This document shows positions 46,632 to 50,592 of a DNA stretch of 64,000 nt, piece by piece; position 1 is the stretch's first letter; each line of letters opens with the position of its first letter. The DNA is from Escherichia coli. GTDB taxonomy: Bacteria; Pseudomonadota; Gammaproteobacteria; Enterobacterales; Enterobacteriaceae. Location of the stretch: assembly GCF_024502345.1 (NCBI RefSeq), contig NZ_JALDNN010000001.1. One strand, 5' to 3'. The notes below the pieces were generated by a model. That model was not told the DNA's origin and made no database searches. It saw only the letters and a list, made by a program, of their open reading frames with translations. A program made the position numbers and the translations under genes.

Positions 46632-47378
46632 ATGGAACAAGCGCATACCCAGCTGATTGCCCAACTTAACGAGCGTATTTTAGCGGCGGATAACACGCCG
46701 CTTTATATTAAGTTTGCCGAAACGGTAAAAAATGCCGTGCGCAGCGGGGTGCTGGAGCATGGCAATATTTTGCCCGGTGAGCGTGATTTAAGTCAGTTAA
46801 CCGGCGTTTCACGCATTACGGTGCGCAAGGCGATGCAGGCGCTGGAAGAAGAGGGTGTGGTGACGCGTTCGCGCGGTTACGGCACGCAGATCAACAACAT
46901 CTTCGAATACTCGTTGAAAGAAGCGCGAGGTTTTTCTCAGCAGGTGGTATTGCGCGGGAAAAAGCCCGATACGCTATGGGTTAACAAGCGTGTCGTGAAA
47001 TGTCCCGAAGAAGTCGCGCAGCAGCTGGCGGTCGAAGCGGGAAGTGATGTCTTTTTGCTTAAGCGTATTCGCTATGTCGATGAAGAAGCGGTATCGATTG
47101 AGGAATCGTGGGTTCCGGCGCATTTAATTCATGATGTTGATGCCATCGGAATTTCTCTTTATGACTATTTCCGCAGCCAGCACATTTACCCACAACGTAC
47201 ACGTTCCCGCGTTAGCGCCCGGATGCCAGATGCCGAGTTTCAGTCACATATTCAGTTAGATAGCAAAATACCGGTGCTGGTGATCAAGCAAGTGGCGCTT
47301 GACCAACAGCAACGGCCTATTGAATACAGCATTAGCCACTGTCGCAGCGATCTATACGTTTTTGTGTGCGAGGAGTAG
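46632..47378 (+). CDS. yegW: GntR/HutC-family transcriptional regulator
   Basis: 248 aa; N-terminal GntR HTH, UTRA-like C-terminus. Confidence 0.85.
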   Translation: MEQAHTQLIAQLNERILAADNTPLYIKFAETVKNAVRSGVLEHGNILPGERDLSQLTGVSRITVRKAMQALEEEGVVTRSRGYGTQINNIFEYSLKEARGFSQQVVLRGKKPDTLWVNKRVVKCPEEVAQQLAVEAGSDVFLLKRIRYVDEEAVSIEESWVPAHLIHDVDAIGISLYDYFRSQHIYPQRTRSRVSARMPDAEFQSHIQLDSKIPVLVIKQVALDQQQRPIEYSISHCRSDLYVFVCEE

Positions 47379-48317
47379 TTCCTCGCGCGTTGGCGCACAA
47401 TCACCGCCCCGATGCCCGACAACCCACGACGCCACTGCATTGCCCAGTAATACGGCATCCGCCAGTGGCAGACCAGAGGCCAGCCCGGCAAGTACGCCAC
47501 CGGCATGACTGTCGCCCGCCCCAATGGTGTCGACAACTTGCGTTGGAAATGCCGGAATGCAGCCAGAAGCGTCGTTGCTGAAATACCATGCGCCTTCTTT
47601 ATCGAGACGAACGATCAACGGCGCGGCAAATTTCTCCTGCCATTGCTTGCCAAGTGTTGTTATCTCTGCGGATAAAGCAAAACGTTCGGCGGCAATCTCA
47701 GCCTCTTGACGATTGAGTGACACTAAAGGTCGACAGGCCATGATCCGCGCCAGTAATGCGTCCGGGATATCGCCAATACGTGGGCCAAAATCGATAAACG
47801 GCGTCACGTCTTGCAGCTCTTCCAGCCATTCCACTAACAATTCGCCGCAGGGCGAGGCCAGTTGATAACCGGAAAAATAGAGCAGGCTGCCAGGCGCAAC
47901 GGTTAATCGCGCCAGCCACTGGCGATTCCACTGATTTTCCACACCGCTGAATGACATAAAAGTACGTTCGCCATCCGGCTCAACCAGCGCCAGACACCAG
48001 CCGTTATCGCCTTCGGCGTTATCGATCAGGCTGATTAACCCCTCTTTCGCCATCCGGTTGCGAATAATCTCCGCCCATACCCCCTGACCGAGCGGCAAGG
48101 CATTACCCGCTTCGATGCCGAGGCGCTTTAACGCCACGGCAATATTCAGTGCGCAGCCGCCAACGTTAACGCTCTGCTGTTTCAGTTCGATATCGCACCC
48201 ACGCCAGGGGAGGGCATAAGCGTCGGCGATCACGTCAATGACCGCCGCGCCGACGACCATCACCGACTGACGCGTGGTTAATTCAGGCAGCAGCGTGTGT
48301 AATCGAGCGCCGCTCAT
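47352..48317 (-). CDS. yegV: PfkB-family sugar/nucleoside kinase
   Basis: 321 aa; C-terminal DTIGAGDSHAGG motif. Confidence 0.85.
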   Translation of the reverse strand: MSGARLHTLLPELTTRQSVMVVGAAVIDVIADAYALPWRGCDIELKQQSVNVGGCALNIAVALKRLGIEAGNALPLGQGVWAEIIRNRMAKEGLISLIDNAEGDNGWCLALVEPDGERTFMSFSGVENQWNRQWLARLTVAPGSLLYFSGYQLASPCGELLVEWLEELQDVTPFIDFGPRIGDIPDALLARIMACRPLVSLNRQEAEIAAERFALSAEITTLGKQWQEKFAAPLIVRLDKEGAWYFSNDASGCIPAFPTQVVDTIGAGDSHAGGVLAGLASGLPLADAVLLGNAVASWVVGHRGGDCAPTREELLLAHKNV

Positions 48318-49318
48318 ACCGCCTCCCGTTGTTGACGATATTTCGCCAGCGCTGTGGCATAGCGGTTGAAATCAAGCTGATTTACCGCATCCAGCTCCGC
48401 CTTTAACGCAGGATCGATAGCGTTAATGCCATGCAACGCGCCGCAGATTGCCGTCGCCATAGCACCGATGGTGTCTGTATCGCCGCCAAGGTTAGCGCAG
48501 AGGACGGCGCAACGGTTCGGGTCGGTTTGTGCCAGTTCAACCAGCGCAATGGCGCACGGAACGGACTCGATAGTGCTGGTACCTGCGCCAACGACCTGAT
48601 ACAGCTGTTCGCTGGCGGATTCAGTGCCGTCGGCATTGCGCACAATTTTCAGCGCAATCTCCAGCCGCGCCGCCAGTGAGGCGCTGAACGTGGTGGTGCG
48701 TTTTTGCTGTGCATGTCGCGCAATTGAAGGCAATGAATCAACAATCGCTGACCAGCTTTCTCCGTCAATAGCACGAGAAATCGCCCATGCGATGACTACC
48801 GCGCCCGCAACCGCCAGATCGGATTTATGGGTCGGGCTGGACGCCAGCGCCACATCATCAATAAAGGAATCAACATCGTGCGCCGGAAGCAAACAACCTA
48901 ATGGCGAGACGCGCATCGCTGCGCCGTTGGTCACGCCGTTGTTTTCCAGTTCAGCAACGGGTTTACCGTCGCGAATGGCGTTGAGAGCAATCTTCGAGGT
49001 CGGACCTAGTACGTTTTTGTTAAAGGCGTCGAAACGCAGCGCCCAGTCGAGAATATTACGCCCAATCAGATTCGGGTCGATCTTGCCTTCACGTTCCAGT
49101 AACGCATCCGCCAGACACAGCGCCATCGAGGTATCGTCGGTGAATTCGGCGCGGTTAAAATAACAGGCCGCGTTATTCTCCTTTGGTCCAGGCAGAAAAC
49201 GGTCAATCCAGCCAAAGTGTGCTTTAACGCGGCTGCGTGGCCAAAGCTCGGAGGGCATCCCCATCGCATCCCCTAACGCCTGCCCATAAAGAGCACCGAG
49301 AATACGTTCTGTTTTCAT
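48314..49318 (-). CDS. yegU: ADP-ribosylglycohydrolase-family protein
   Basis: 334 aa; ATGA overlap with yegV. Confidence 0.85.
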   Translation of the reverse strand: MKTERILGALYGQALGDAMGMPSELWPRSRVKAHFGWIDRFLPGPKENNAACYFNRAEFTDDTSMALCLADALLEREGKIDPNLIGRNILDWALRFDAFNKNVLGPTSKIALNAIRDGKPVAELENNGVTNGAAMRVSPLGCLLPAHDVDSFIDDVALASSPTHKSDLAVAGAVVIAWAISRAIDGESWSAIVDSLPSIARHAQQKRTTTFSASLAARLEIALKIVRNADGTESASEQLYQVVGAGTSTIESVPCAIALVELAQTDPNRCAVLCANLGGDTDTIGAMATAICGALHGINAIDPALKAELDAVNQLDFNRYATALAKYRQQREAV

Positions 49319-50592
49319 TTAACTTCCCCTTGTGTCAACGCAATATCGCGATCATCGACCTTGATAGCCGTAATTTCGTTGTCGGATTCGCGGAAAAAAA
49401 TCATGAACAGCACGGCGATAATGGCAATCATCACCGCGCCGAAAGTCCACATCCCGGACCAGTTGAAAGTCAGTCCGTTTACCGGTTCCTGATAAGCGAA
49501 CATCTTTTCCATCATCACACCGCCAAGACGATAGCCGAGCAAACTGCCGAAGCCCTGGCAGCAGAGCGTGATCAGCCCCTGCGCGGCGGTACGCATATGC
49601 ACGGGGGCTTTTTTATCGACATAGATGTAAGCGGTAACGTAGTAAAAATCGTAACTTACGCCGTGAAGCAAAATACCGAGGAACAGTAACGCGTAGGTGA
49701 AATATTCATCCGCACTACCGTAAATAAAGAAGCCATAGCGGATCGCAGCGGTGATCAGACCAAGCAATAATACCTTTTTGATACCAAAGCGTTTAGTGAA
49801 AAACGGCAATGCCAGCATAAAGAATATTTCAGAGAACTGGCCGAGCGTCATCCAGCCAGTGGCGTTTTTCATACCGACTTCGGTCAGATAACCGTTGGCA
49901 AAGATGTAATAGAACGCCAGTGGCATCGCAAACAGGAATGAACAGAAGAAAAAGACGAGGAAGTTTTTATCGCGCAGCAGGATCAGCGCATCCAGGCCGA
50001 GCATGACTTTAATGTCCATTTTGCCGGTGCTTTTGGGCGGCGTGTCGGGCAGGAAAAACGCAAACACACCGAGCAGAGCAGAACTTCCGGCGGTAATCAG
50101 CAGCGGGATGTTAGTCGGTGAGATATCGGCATACCCCAGCATTTGCGGCAAGAATCCACATGCCAGACCGGAGGCAATCCAACCGATAGTGCCCATCACA
50201 CGAATGCGCGGGAAATCACGCTCAACATCCGGCACGTTGGCAAAAGCGATGCTGTTAGTCAGCGCAATGGTCGGCATATAGGTTAGCGAGTAGGCCAGCA
50301 GTAACGGGAAGAACCCGGCAAAAGTGGTCTGTTGCGCGGCGAAATACATCAGCAGCGCGCCTGCGAACATCAATACCGCCAGCACTTTCTGCGCCGAGAA
50401 AAAGCGGTCAGTGATGGAGCCAACCAGAATTGGCGACAGGATCGCCGCAATGGCTGTGCAGGCATACGACCAGCCAATTTCTCCGGCACTAAAACCGCTT
50501 TTACTTAACCACAACCACAATGGCACAAACCACGCGCCCCAGATAAACCATTCAACAAACATCATGAACGACAGCTTTGCTGTTGTTTTCAT
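49315..50592 (-). CDS. yegT: MFS nucleoside:H+ symporter-family transporter
   Basis: 425 aa polytopic membrane protein; overlaps yegU start. Confidence 0.85.
   Translation of the reverse strand: MKTTAKLSFMMFVEWFIWGAWFVPLWLWLSKSGFSAGEIGWSYACTAIAAILSPILVGSITDRFFSAQKVLAVLMFAGALLMYFAAQQTTFAGFFPLLLAYSLTYMPTIALTNSIAFANVPDVERDFPRIRVMGTIGWIASGLACGFLPQMLGYADISPTNIPLLITAGSSALLGVFAFFLPDTPPKSTGKMDIKVMLGLDALILLRDKNFLVFFFCSFLFAMPLAFYYIFANGYLTEVGMKNATGWMTLGQFSEIFFMLALPFFTKRFGIKKVLLLGLITAAIRYGFFIYGSADEYFTYALLFLGILLHGVSYDFYYVTAYIYVDKKAPVHMRTAAQGLITLCCQGFGSLLGYRLGGVMMEKMFAYQEPVNGLTFNWSGMWTFGAVMIAIIAVLFMIFFRESDNEITAIKVDDRDIALTQGEVK

Follow-up and report, generated by a model that had tools for sequence, protein, structure and literature searches.

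A candidate pathway for uptake and breakdown of an unusual riboside in the GgaR-repressed yegTUV operon of Escherichia coli

In Escherichia coli, the psuK-psuG-psuT genes (yeiC, yeiN and yeiM) together encode a nucleoside transporter, a PfkB-family 5′-kinase of a modified riboside and a metal-dependent glycosidase. The pseudouridine glycosidase cleaves the 5′-phosphate form to ribose-5-phosphate and the base, and fusions of kinase and glycosidase exist. STM4068, with its derepression genetics, is presumably the GntR regulator of the Salmonella enterica STM4065-STM4066-STM4067 genes. Like yegTUV, the latter encode a permease, a PfkB kinase and a protein of the ADP-ribosylglycohydrolase (ARH) family; the STM4066 kinase phosphorylates aminoimidazole riboside, and a mutant in the ARH gene STM4067 is attenuated in the pig gut (PMC3161100). 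Here we analysed yegT, yegU, yegV and the regulatory gene yegW in a 64,000-nucleotide stretch of E. coli chromosome (contig NZ_JALDNN010000001.1; the whole stretch is called the window below), where they are arranged as follows:

46632-47378, plus strand: yegW (ggaR), 248 aa, GntR/HutC-type repressor with an N-terminal winged helix-turn-helix (wHTH) and a C-terminal UTRA domain.
47352-48317, minus strand: yegV, 321 aa, PfkB-family kinase of a distinct subfamily, proposed riboside (or ribose) 5-kinase.
48314-49318, minus strand: yegU, 334 aa, ARH-fold metal-dependent glycohydrolase.
49315-50592, minus strand: yegT, 425 aa, transporter of the major facilitator superfamily, NHS (nucleoside:H+ symporter) family.

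All four genes are found at these coordinates in the list of open reading frames (ORFs) of the window, the RefSeq annotation is identical, and the 5-kb yegTUV-yegW region is present in 5424 of 5426 complete E. coli genomes. A previous sequence-only reading of this DNA had described three overlapping minus-strand genes for a transporter, an ARH protein and a PfkB kinase; the ORF list, the Pfam matches and the 4-nt ATGA overlaps at both the yegT/yegU and the yegU/yegV junction bear this out, and the overlaps suggest translational coupling. The same reading called the GntR/HutC regulator divergent in its heading and convergent in its text. Only the latter is right: yegW converges on yegV, with 27 nt shared at the 3′ ends (47352-47378), and the divergent neighbour of yegT is fbaB. 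The locus is already known, named and partly characterised, and is thus not novel as a sequence feature. That the substrate of the enzymes is uncharacterised still holds, since the literature searched, up to mid-2026, assigns none and contains no paper that we could find giving an enzymatic function to the yegTUV products; the regulator, as GgaR (PMC10819704), and the YegT structure 8ZOJ (PMC11979927), however, had already been published.

We give an even chance to yegTUV being a normally silent, coupled operon for the uptake and breakdown of a non-canonical ribofuranoside. When both possible orders of the enzymatic steps are counted, a riboside pathway ranks somewhere from evenly balanced to fairly probable. 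By comparison with characterised relatives, the substrate would be a ribose with an unusual aglycone, other than that of U, A, C or G. In the proposed scheme, YegT would import the riboside together with a proton, YegV would phosphorylate the 5-OH of the ribose, and the two-metal centre of YegU would grip the cis 2,3-diol and cut the C1 bond to yield ribose-5-phosphate and the aglycone. GgaR would bind an array of GGTAT elements in an 11-bp register that covers the -10 element and the transcript start, with a second copy 880 bp downstream, and would be freed by a phosphorylated effector. We infer that the real, physiological inducer may be a pathway intermediate, of which ADP-glucose would be a possible mimic. 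In all three proteins the residues predicted to contact ribose are retained and those for the base or adenine are not.

YegT matched Nuc_H_symport PF03825 (1.7e-183, 610.6 bits versus a cut-off of 25.9) and TIGR00889 (653.3 versus 446.1 bits), and is near-identical to PDB 8ZOJ, the YegT crystal structure published in 2025 (PMC11979927). In NupG, the residues contacting the ribose of uridine are R136, T140 and E264 (PMC8042404); alignment revealed that these are identical in YegT, as R131, T135 and E255, and that the base-binding residues are replaced. The structural study reports that the NupG uridine contacts Phe143, Tyr318, Phe322 and Asn228 are not conserved in YegT, and that isothermal titration calorimetry of YegT with uridine, adenosine, cytidine and guanosine gave no significant signal (PMC11979927). 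A GxxxD motif with a protonatable Asp in transmembrane helix 10, G311-D315, corresponds to G319-D323 of NupG (residue roles from PMC8042404 and PMC11979927).

YegU matched ADP_ribosyl_GH PF03747 (3.6e-66, 224 bits versus 26.2). In Foldseek, the best match of its AlphaFold2 model (pLDDT 97.9) was MJ1187 (1T5J, TM 0.81/0.90), followed by ARH3 (0.76-0.78) and DraG. The catalytic Glu and the metal ligands of ARH3 (E41, T76-D77-D78 and D314/D316/T317) correspond to E24, T60-D61-D62 and D280/D282/T283 of YegU; among 94 YegU homologues D61 and D282 were invariant, and T60, D62, D280 and T283 were at least 90% conserved. ARH enzymes need the cis 2″,3″-OH of the ribose, and ARH1 and ARH3 select alpha-1″ linkages (PMC7050489). 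The family, the fold and the full metal and Glu catalytic set are also what one would expect if YegU were a genuine (ADP-ribosyl)hydrolase acting on protein, nucleic acid or a small molecule, like DraG, ARH1, ARH3 or Tri1. We regard this as very improbable, because the adenine contacts of ARH3 are missing: F143 and Y149 are N126 and V129 in YegU, and S148 has no counterpart owing to a 3-aa deletion. ARH3 itself loses almost all activity when mutated to F143L or S148A (PMC8319183). YegU also scored far under the equivalog cut-offs of DraG (TIGR02662, 80.5 versus 337) and Tri1 (NF041672, 69.2 versus 490), and yegU is coupled translationally within a transporter-kinase operon and fused to PfkB elsewhere; no ADP-ribosyltransferase was found among the recurrent neighbours of the loci described below. 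PADLOC gave no defence match for any of the four proteins, and a role in anti-phage defence was rejected on that ground. The invariant H164 of YegU aligns with H182 of ARH3; a phosphate-binding role for it is unconfirmed and was given no weight.

YegV matched PfkB PF00294 (8.3e-57, 193 bits versus 25.8), and its catalytic-base motif G-A-G-D269 (GxGD) aligns with D255 of ribokinase, the Asp being kept in 67 of 67 relatives. None of the NCBIfam equivalog models matched YegV above its cut-off; scores were 82.1 versus 299.65 and 60.6 versus 341 for the ribokinase models TIGR02152 and NF008353, and 19.6 bits against a cut-off of 540 for pseudouridine kinase. A 2025 preprint still describes YegV as an uncharacterised sugar kinase. 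The ribose ligands of E. coli ribokinase are N14, D16, G42, K43, N46, E143 and D255 (PMC9604405). YegV keeps four of the seven, D16, G42, N46 and D255 (as D28, G54, N58 and D269), and these are kept in 66-67 of 67 ARH-linked YegV-type kinases. The other three, N14, K43 and E143, are replaced by V26, C55 and A154; across the ARH-linked kinases the first position is V, F, M or I in 66 of 67 and the second Cys in 63 of 67, and the third is variable. N14 and K43 are lost likewise in the kinase part of fusion proteins. The three replaced residues presumably surround the anomeric side of the ribose, where nucleoside kinases of the family have hydrophobic or small residues. Orthology with the Salmonella aminoimidazole riboside kinase was rejected, since that kinase (PDB 1TYY) matches YegV only at E = 8.7e-5; the PfkB protein of an NCS1-type locus (L002; see below for the loci) has no match to 1TYY.

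The sequence-only reading had suggested import, hydrolytic processing and phosphorylation of a ribosylated compound. The overall logic fits our results, but the evidence leans slightly to the kinase acting before the hydrolase, an order that we infer with only mild preference from the residue pattern of YegV, the phosphate pocket of YegW (below), the psu precedent and the riboside kinase activity of STM4066. If the hydrolase acted first, YegT would import the riboside, YegU would free ribose and aglycone, and YegV would be a dedicated ribokinase. We consider this order possible though rather unlikely. It agrees with the gene order (transporter, hydrolase, kinase), with the best solved and NCBIfam matches of YegV, which are ribokinases, and with the finding that Edwardsiella, Serratia marcescens and Brenneria carry yegU and yegW without yegV and yegT, with the same candidate operator upstream of yegU. 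Ribose-utilisation loci of Bacteroides likewise pair ARH-family genes with ribokinases (bioRxiv 10.1101/574913). It is opposed by the loss of the ribokinase ligands N14 and K43 in 63-66 of 67 YegV-type kinases, by the score of YegV far under the ribokinase equivalog cut-off and by the retained phosphate-binding effector pocket of YegW; ribose-5-phosphate, a central metabolite, would then be the sole phosphorylated species and hence a poor specific inducer. E. coli moreover already possesses the ribokinase RbsK. To our knowledge all characterised ARH enzymes act on ribose with a 5″-phosphate, as in ADP-ribose, which also speaks for phosphorylation first.

An exhaustive HMMER search with YegU retrieved 235 cluster representatives at E <= 1e-30, and nine of ten long homologues tested were ARH-PfkB fusions, in both domain orders. 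We then analysed 83 loci (80 from a scan of one genome per species and 3 further; numbered with an L where single loci are named). A YegV-type PfkB gene lay within 3.5 kb of the ARH gene in 67/83 and a HutC-type regulator was present in 53/83, counts to be read with the phylogenetic non-independence of the loci in mind, since some 30 of them come from Enterobacterales and share one synteny. The pairing spans Enterobacterales, Vibrio, Aeromonas, Chromobacterium, Bacilli, Lactobacillales, Clostridia, Negativicutes and Actinobacteria, many of these taxa being gut-associated. The enzyme pair is conserved and the partner transporter is swapped:

NHS (YegT) partner: 32 loci; Enterobacterales, Vibrio, Gilliamella.
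NCS1 (PF02133) partner: 22 loci; Aeromonas, Chromobacterium, Bacilli, Lactobacillales, Dialister, Streptomyces.
PnuC-like (PF04973) partner: 13 loci; Clostridia.
ECF S-component partner: 4 loci; more distant, without kinase.

The NHS, NCS1 and PnuC families each include riboside transporters, yet carry other compounds too. The PnuC-like proteins exceed the cut-off of TIGR01528 (nicotinamide riboside transporter), and on clustering of 374 neighbouring ORFs they were the sole recurrent family informative for the aglycone; the other clusters were chromosomal context (phoPQ, purB) or lineage-restricted ECF-transporter and TonB-receptor genes, and PNP_UDP_1 adjoined the module in just 3-4 loci. A riboswitch that would name the ligand was sought and rejected: none was found upstream of the ARH-PfkB operons in 20 loci, where the RNA matches (SRP RNA, c-di-AMP riboswitch, guanidine-I riboswitch) lay on unrelated genes only. 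A guanidine-I riboswitch beside SMR-type efflux genes and a c-di-AMP riboswitch occur in the flanks of related loci, at L006 12918-13023 (-) and L085 12217-12358 (+), unrelated to the module.

Two further observations concern the wider family. In a metagenomic contig (L005 1-17029), the ARH-PfkB pair lies inside a purine, allantoin and glyoxylate catabolic island with genes for a nucleoside phosphorylase, two NCS1 permeases, amidohydrolases, an OTCase-like protein, a glyoxylate carboligase-like and a hydroxypyruvate isomerase-like protein and glycerate kinase; this one example possibly hints that the riboside derives from a purine. More remote YegU homologues, of 35-41% identity, from Ignavibacteria, Marinimicrobia, Micromonospora and a Bacillota metagenome-assembled genome (L071, L077, L079, L081 and L086), come without the kinase. 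Their neighbours encode ECF-transporter components (S component, duplicated ABC ATPase), an AIRS-domain protein or TonB-dependent receptors, and these homologues probably differ in function.

The regulator has been the subject of experimental work. According to a 2024 report in which YegW was renamed GgaR (PMC10819704), GgaR is a single-target repressor of yegTUV with one genomic ChIP-chip peak. By gel shift, the stronger of two binding sites was placed in the 190 bp upstream of yegT and the weaker at 571-869 bp of the yegT ORF, a 3.3-kb yegTUV transcript appeared in the ggaR mutant only, with derepression of about 30-fold, and GgaR was released in vitro from the fbaB/yegT probe by 10-100 uM ADP-glucose, but not by glucose or ADP. 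In our analysis YegW matched GntR PF00392 (3.1e-16, 59.2 bits) and UTRA PF07702 (2.3e-36, 125.1 bits), which places it in the HutC subfamily, and its closest solved relative was Bacillus subtilis NagR/YvoA (5.8e-22). NagR coordinates phosphate through T90, R133, R135, S165, I166 and Y167 (PMC4333415), which align with S102, R145, R147, S175, L176 and Y177 of YegW. All six positions were retained in 28/28 YegW orthologues, and the majority of 23 less closely related ARH-linked regulators have them too, so that the effector of YegW is probably phosphorylated.

The release by ADP-glucose can also be read to mean that yegTUV acts on ADP-glucose or its supply, with GgaR as a sensor of ADP-glucose. 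The ggaR mutant accumulates 2-3 times more glycogen, yegTUV mRNA is about 3-fold higher in 1% than in 0.25% glucose in a GgaR-dependent manner (PMC10819704), yegV is on a published list of glycogen-lowering deletions, and NupC and NupG are reported to import ADP-glucose (both cited in PMC10819704). We nevertheless judge such an ADP-glucose/glycogen module improbable. The effector panel consisted of three compounds only and contained no ADP-ribose, sugar phosphate or non-ADP nucleotide; the mutant grows slower in minimal glucose, and glycogen synthesis rises as growth slows; the excess glycogen arises in minimal medium without external ADP-glucose; and the sections of the report that were read give no test of whether the glycogen phenotype depends on yegT, yegU or yegV (PMC10819704). 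ADP-glucose is without the ribosyl C1″ glycosidic bond that ARH enzymes cut, its hydrolysis would decrease and not increase glycogen, and the same enzyme pair is elsewhere tied to NCS1 or PnuC-type carriers. We know of no NCS1 or PnuC member that transports a nucleotide sugar. It is conceivable that glycogen is affected indirectly, through the cost of 30-fold over-expression or because promiscuous activity depletes a nucleotide such as AMP, an inhibitor of GlgC (PMC10819704).

The 2024 study defines no DNA motif for GgaR (PMC10819704). A GntR palindrome, which the sequence-only reading expected upstream of yegT, was searched for there without success; what is conserved is a direct repeat in an 11-bp register with extra inverted half-sites. 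From its location, statistics and conservation we propose GGTAT-N6-GGTAT as the candidate GgaR operator, described here for the first time:

50613-50669 (core 50646-50665), minus strand: O1, proposed primary GgaR operator, an array of GGTA(Y) half-sites.
49766-49785, minus strand: O2, proposed auxiliary GgaR operator inside yegT, codons G270-L276, the second exact motif copy.
50647-50676, minus strand: predicted sigma-70 promoter of yegTUV, -35 TTCACC (50676-50671) and -10 TATTAT (50652-50647).

The fbaB-yegT spacer contains TTCACCgcaaaGGTATTtaaaaGGTATTattaagtGGTATTgtcatcgcGTACCttacATTACCtgtcatgAAGGAattaaaagATG on the yegT strand. In O1 the direct GGTATT repeats start at 50665, 50654 and 50641, and the inverted half-sites are GTACC (50627-50623) and ATTACC (50618-50613). 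The 20-mer core GGTATNNAAAAGGTATTATT occurs in two exact copies in the window versus 0 expected, and GGTAT-N6-GGTAT twice versus 0.06 expected. The two motif copies, at -73 from the yegT ATG and at +807 within yegT, are 880 bp apart, and one falls inside each of the two published gel-shift probes (PMC10819704). The upstream copy was found at -64 to -106 in 30/31 yegT loci from Escherichia to Vibrio, in spacers that have otherwise diverged, and the Edwardsiella, S. marcescens and Brenneria loci with yegU and yegW only have the same repeat upstream of yegU. O2 was present with at most one mismatch in 22/31 loci. Its codons were biased in 29 loci, whose relatedness means that their independence is overstated: GGT in 23/29 versus 25% gene-wide, GTA in 18/29 versus 19%, TTR in 21/29 versus 19% and AAG in 27/29 versus 30%. 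O2 thus appears to be maintained by biased synonymous codon choice.

The predicted -10 falls within the second GGTATTAT repeat. The promoter matched 9/12 positions in a consensus scan and was the sole promoter-like match on the yegT strand in the spacer; a -35-like TTCAC(C) is kept in several genera. As O1 overlaps the predicted -10, promoter occlusion would be the simplest model of repression and would fit the 30-fold derepression. Upstream of yegW, the E. coli window showed no motif copy. The Budvicia loci, in which yegW and yegV are free of overlap, have GGTAG-N6-GGTAT directly upstream of yegW (L028 about 6494 (-), L030 about 5347 (-)), which suggests autoregulation there.

Other repeats were noted beside related genes. 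Where HutC-type regulators about 30% identical to YegW stand beside NCS1-type modules (Aeromonas, Chromobacterium and Serratia oryzae among the hosts), (A/C)TGGA(C/T) direct repeats in an 11-bp register lie between the divergent regulator and the ARH gene (L002 7930-7965, L040 6900-6960, L041 6880-6905, L042 6740-6765), an architecture that parallels the E. coli GGTAT repeats with a different half-site. In clostridial ARH-PfkB-PnuC loci with a GntR regulator, the perfect palindrome CTTATTATAATAAG was found upstream of the ARH gene (L058 6940-6965, L059 6925-6950, L064 3185-3205), with a weaker second copy near the regulator in L058 and L059. In the yegT-fbaB spacer of the window, just upstream of the annotated fbaB start (50849), an imperfect inverted repeat, GGATTATGATTGCCCGC / GCGGGCCAGGACAATCC, lies at 50772-50810 (17-nt arms, 76% complementary, 5-nt spacer). 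It may be a regulatory site for fbaB, the mRNA of which is reported to be unaffected by GgaR.

Several points weigh against the proposed riboside pathway. The roles of YegT, YegU and YegV are all drawn from comparison with relatives, the yegTUV promoter is predicted from a consensus scan, and the nearest solved relatives of YegV are ribokinases. The published effector ADP-glucose and the glycogen phenotype are not directly explained by a riboside pathway. Members of the NCS1 and PnuC families also move non-ribosides such as nucleobases, thiamine and hydroxymethylpyrimidine (HMP), and the breadth of the survey is reduced by the relatedness of its loci. The loci of Edwardsiella, S. marcescens and Brenneria without yegT and yegV indicate that the hydrolase is not strictly dependent on a YegV-type kinase, which weakens the kinase-first order. 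Adenosine binding differs greatly among ARH classes (PMC7050489), and the loss of an ARH3-type pocket is therefore compatible with ADP-ribose binding.

A broader proposal, which we regard as doubtful though worth stating, is that the YegV-YegU pair represents an undescribed two-step route, found across at least five phyla with a concentration in gut-associated taxa: 5-phosphorylation of a host- or diet-derived riboside followed by ribosyl cleavage by an ARH-fold enzyme, the bond being alpha-linked or of the pyridinium type, and the inducer being the phosphorylated intermediate. Judging by the PnuC and NCS1 partners, the compound could resemble nicotinamide riboside; a search of the literature for ties between ARH-family enzymes and PnuC or ribosides yielded nothing relevant. 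If the proposal is true, YegU would be the first enzyme of the ARH fold to act on a free small molecule other than ADP-ribose, and the response to ADP-glucose, like the glycogen phenotype, would reflect mimicry or a side effect of derepression.

The downstream end of the locus has a further feature:

47352-47386, no strand assigned: convergent yegV/yegW 3′ overlap plus hairpin in the window sequence.

The 7-bp hairpin, GCGAGGA-gtagt-TCCTCGC at 47368-47386, carries the stop codon of yegW in the loop. A T-run is absent from both strands, so this is no canonical terminator, and a scan of the gene junction found no intrinsic-terminator-like site between yegV and yegW. Escherichia, Citrobacter, Enterobacter, Kluyvera, Cedecea and Pectobacterium share the overlap, which is absent from Budvicia, Tatumella and Rahnella; in Vibrio the two genes are on one strand, with yegW downstream. 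ExcludonFinder lists yegV-yegW as an overlapping convergent pair and candidate excludon (PMC12288877). Antisense interference upon derepression is possible, against which stands the constant GgaR protein level given in the 2024 report (PMC10819704).

Directly upstream of yegW lies yegX (45762-46580, +), encoding a lysozyme-like protein of glycoside hydrolase family 25. It is broken by an internal stop in this strain, leaving ORFs 45753-46046 and 46083-46580, and RefSeq calls the identical sequence a pseudogene. Since only 51 nt separate yegX and yegW, the yegW promoter may sit inside yegX. Further upstream, a TPP riboswitch, for which the identical RefSeq record has an annotation, precedes thiM and thiD, which overlap by 4 nt (43981-45697, +); no functional link of this region to yegTUV was found.

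The yegTUV operon belongs to the core genome of the best-studied bacterium, yet its three proteins have no assigned substrate. Many gut bacteria have the same pair of enzymes, and an analogous Salmonella operon aids persistence in the pig intestine. Naming the substrate would add a gut-microbial nutrient or salvage route, extend ARH-fold chemistry past ADP-ribose and show whether the link to ADP-glucose and glycogen is direct. With the operator motif and residue patterns described here, the question of the substrate is sharpened into testable hypotheses.

In its proposed working, yegTUV is similar to psuK-psuG-psuT, to Salmonella STM4065-4067 and to schemes of nucleoside hydrolase plus ribokinase, but it is a member of none. 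The psu system differs in the PsuG/IndA-like fold of its glycosidase, which is not ARH, in the C-C glycosidic bond that is cut and in its NupC-type transporter. STM4066 belongs to another PfkB subfamily than YegV, and Salmonella additionally has a true yegU orthologue of 83% identity. YegU resembles ARH3, ARH1, DraG and the uncharacterised MJ1187 (1T5J) in its fold, its two-metal centre and its catalytic Glu flap. It is unlike ARH3 in missing the adenine-contact residues and in being linked or fused to a sugar kinase and linked to transporters; these links suggest that its substrate is a small free metabolite and not a modified macromolecule. Like NagR (YvoA) and DasR, YegW combines a wHTH with a UTRA domain, represses an adjacent catabolic operon and would respond to a phosphorylated ligand. 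NagR recognises the palindromic dre site, whereas the proposed YegW sites are GGTAT direct repeats in an 11-bp register with inverted half-sites, and the reported effector of YegW is ADP-glucose, unlike the amino-sugar phosphate of NagR and DasR. The ribose-utilisation systems (RUS) of Bacteroides resemble yegTUV in combining a ribokinase, variable 'nucleoside-cleaving' enzymes including ARH-family members and transporters, and have been proposed to free ribose from diverse ribose-containing nutrients of the gut; they differ in their SusC/D-based architecture of polysaccharide utilisation loci (PUL) and in their regulators, and their ARH members are uncharacterised too (bioRxiv 10.1101/574913).

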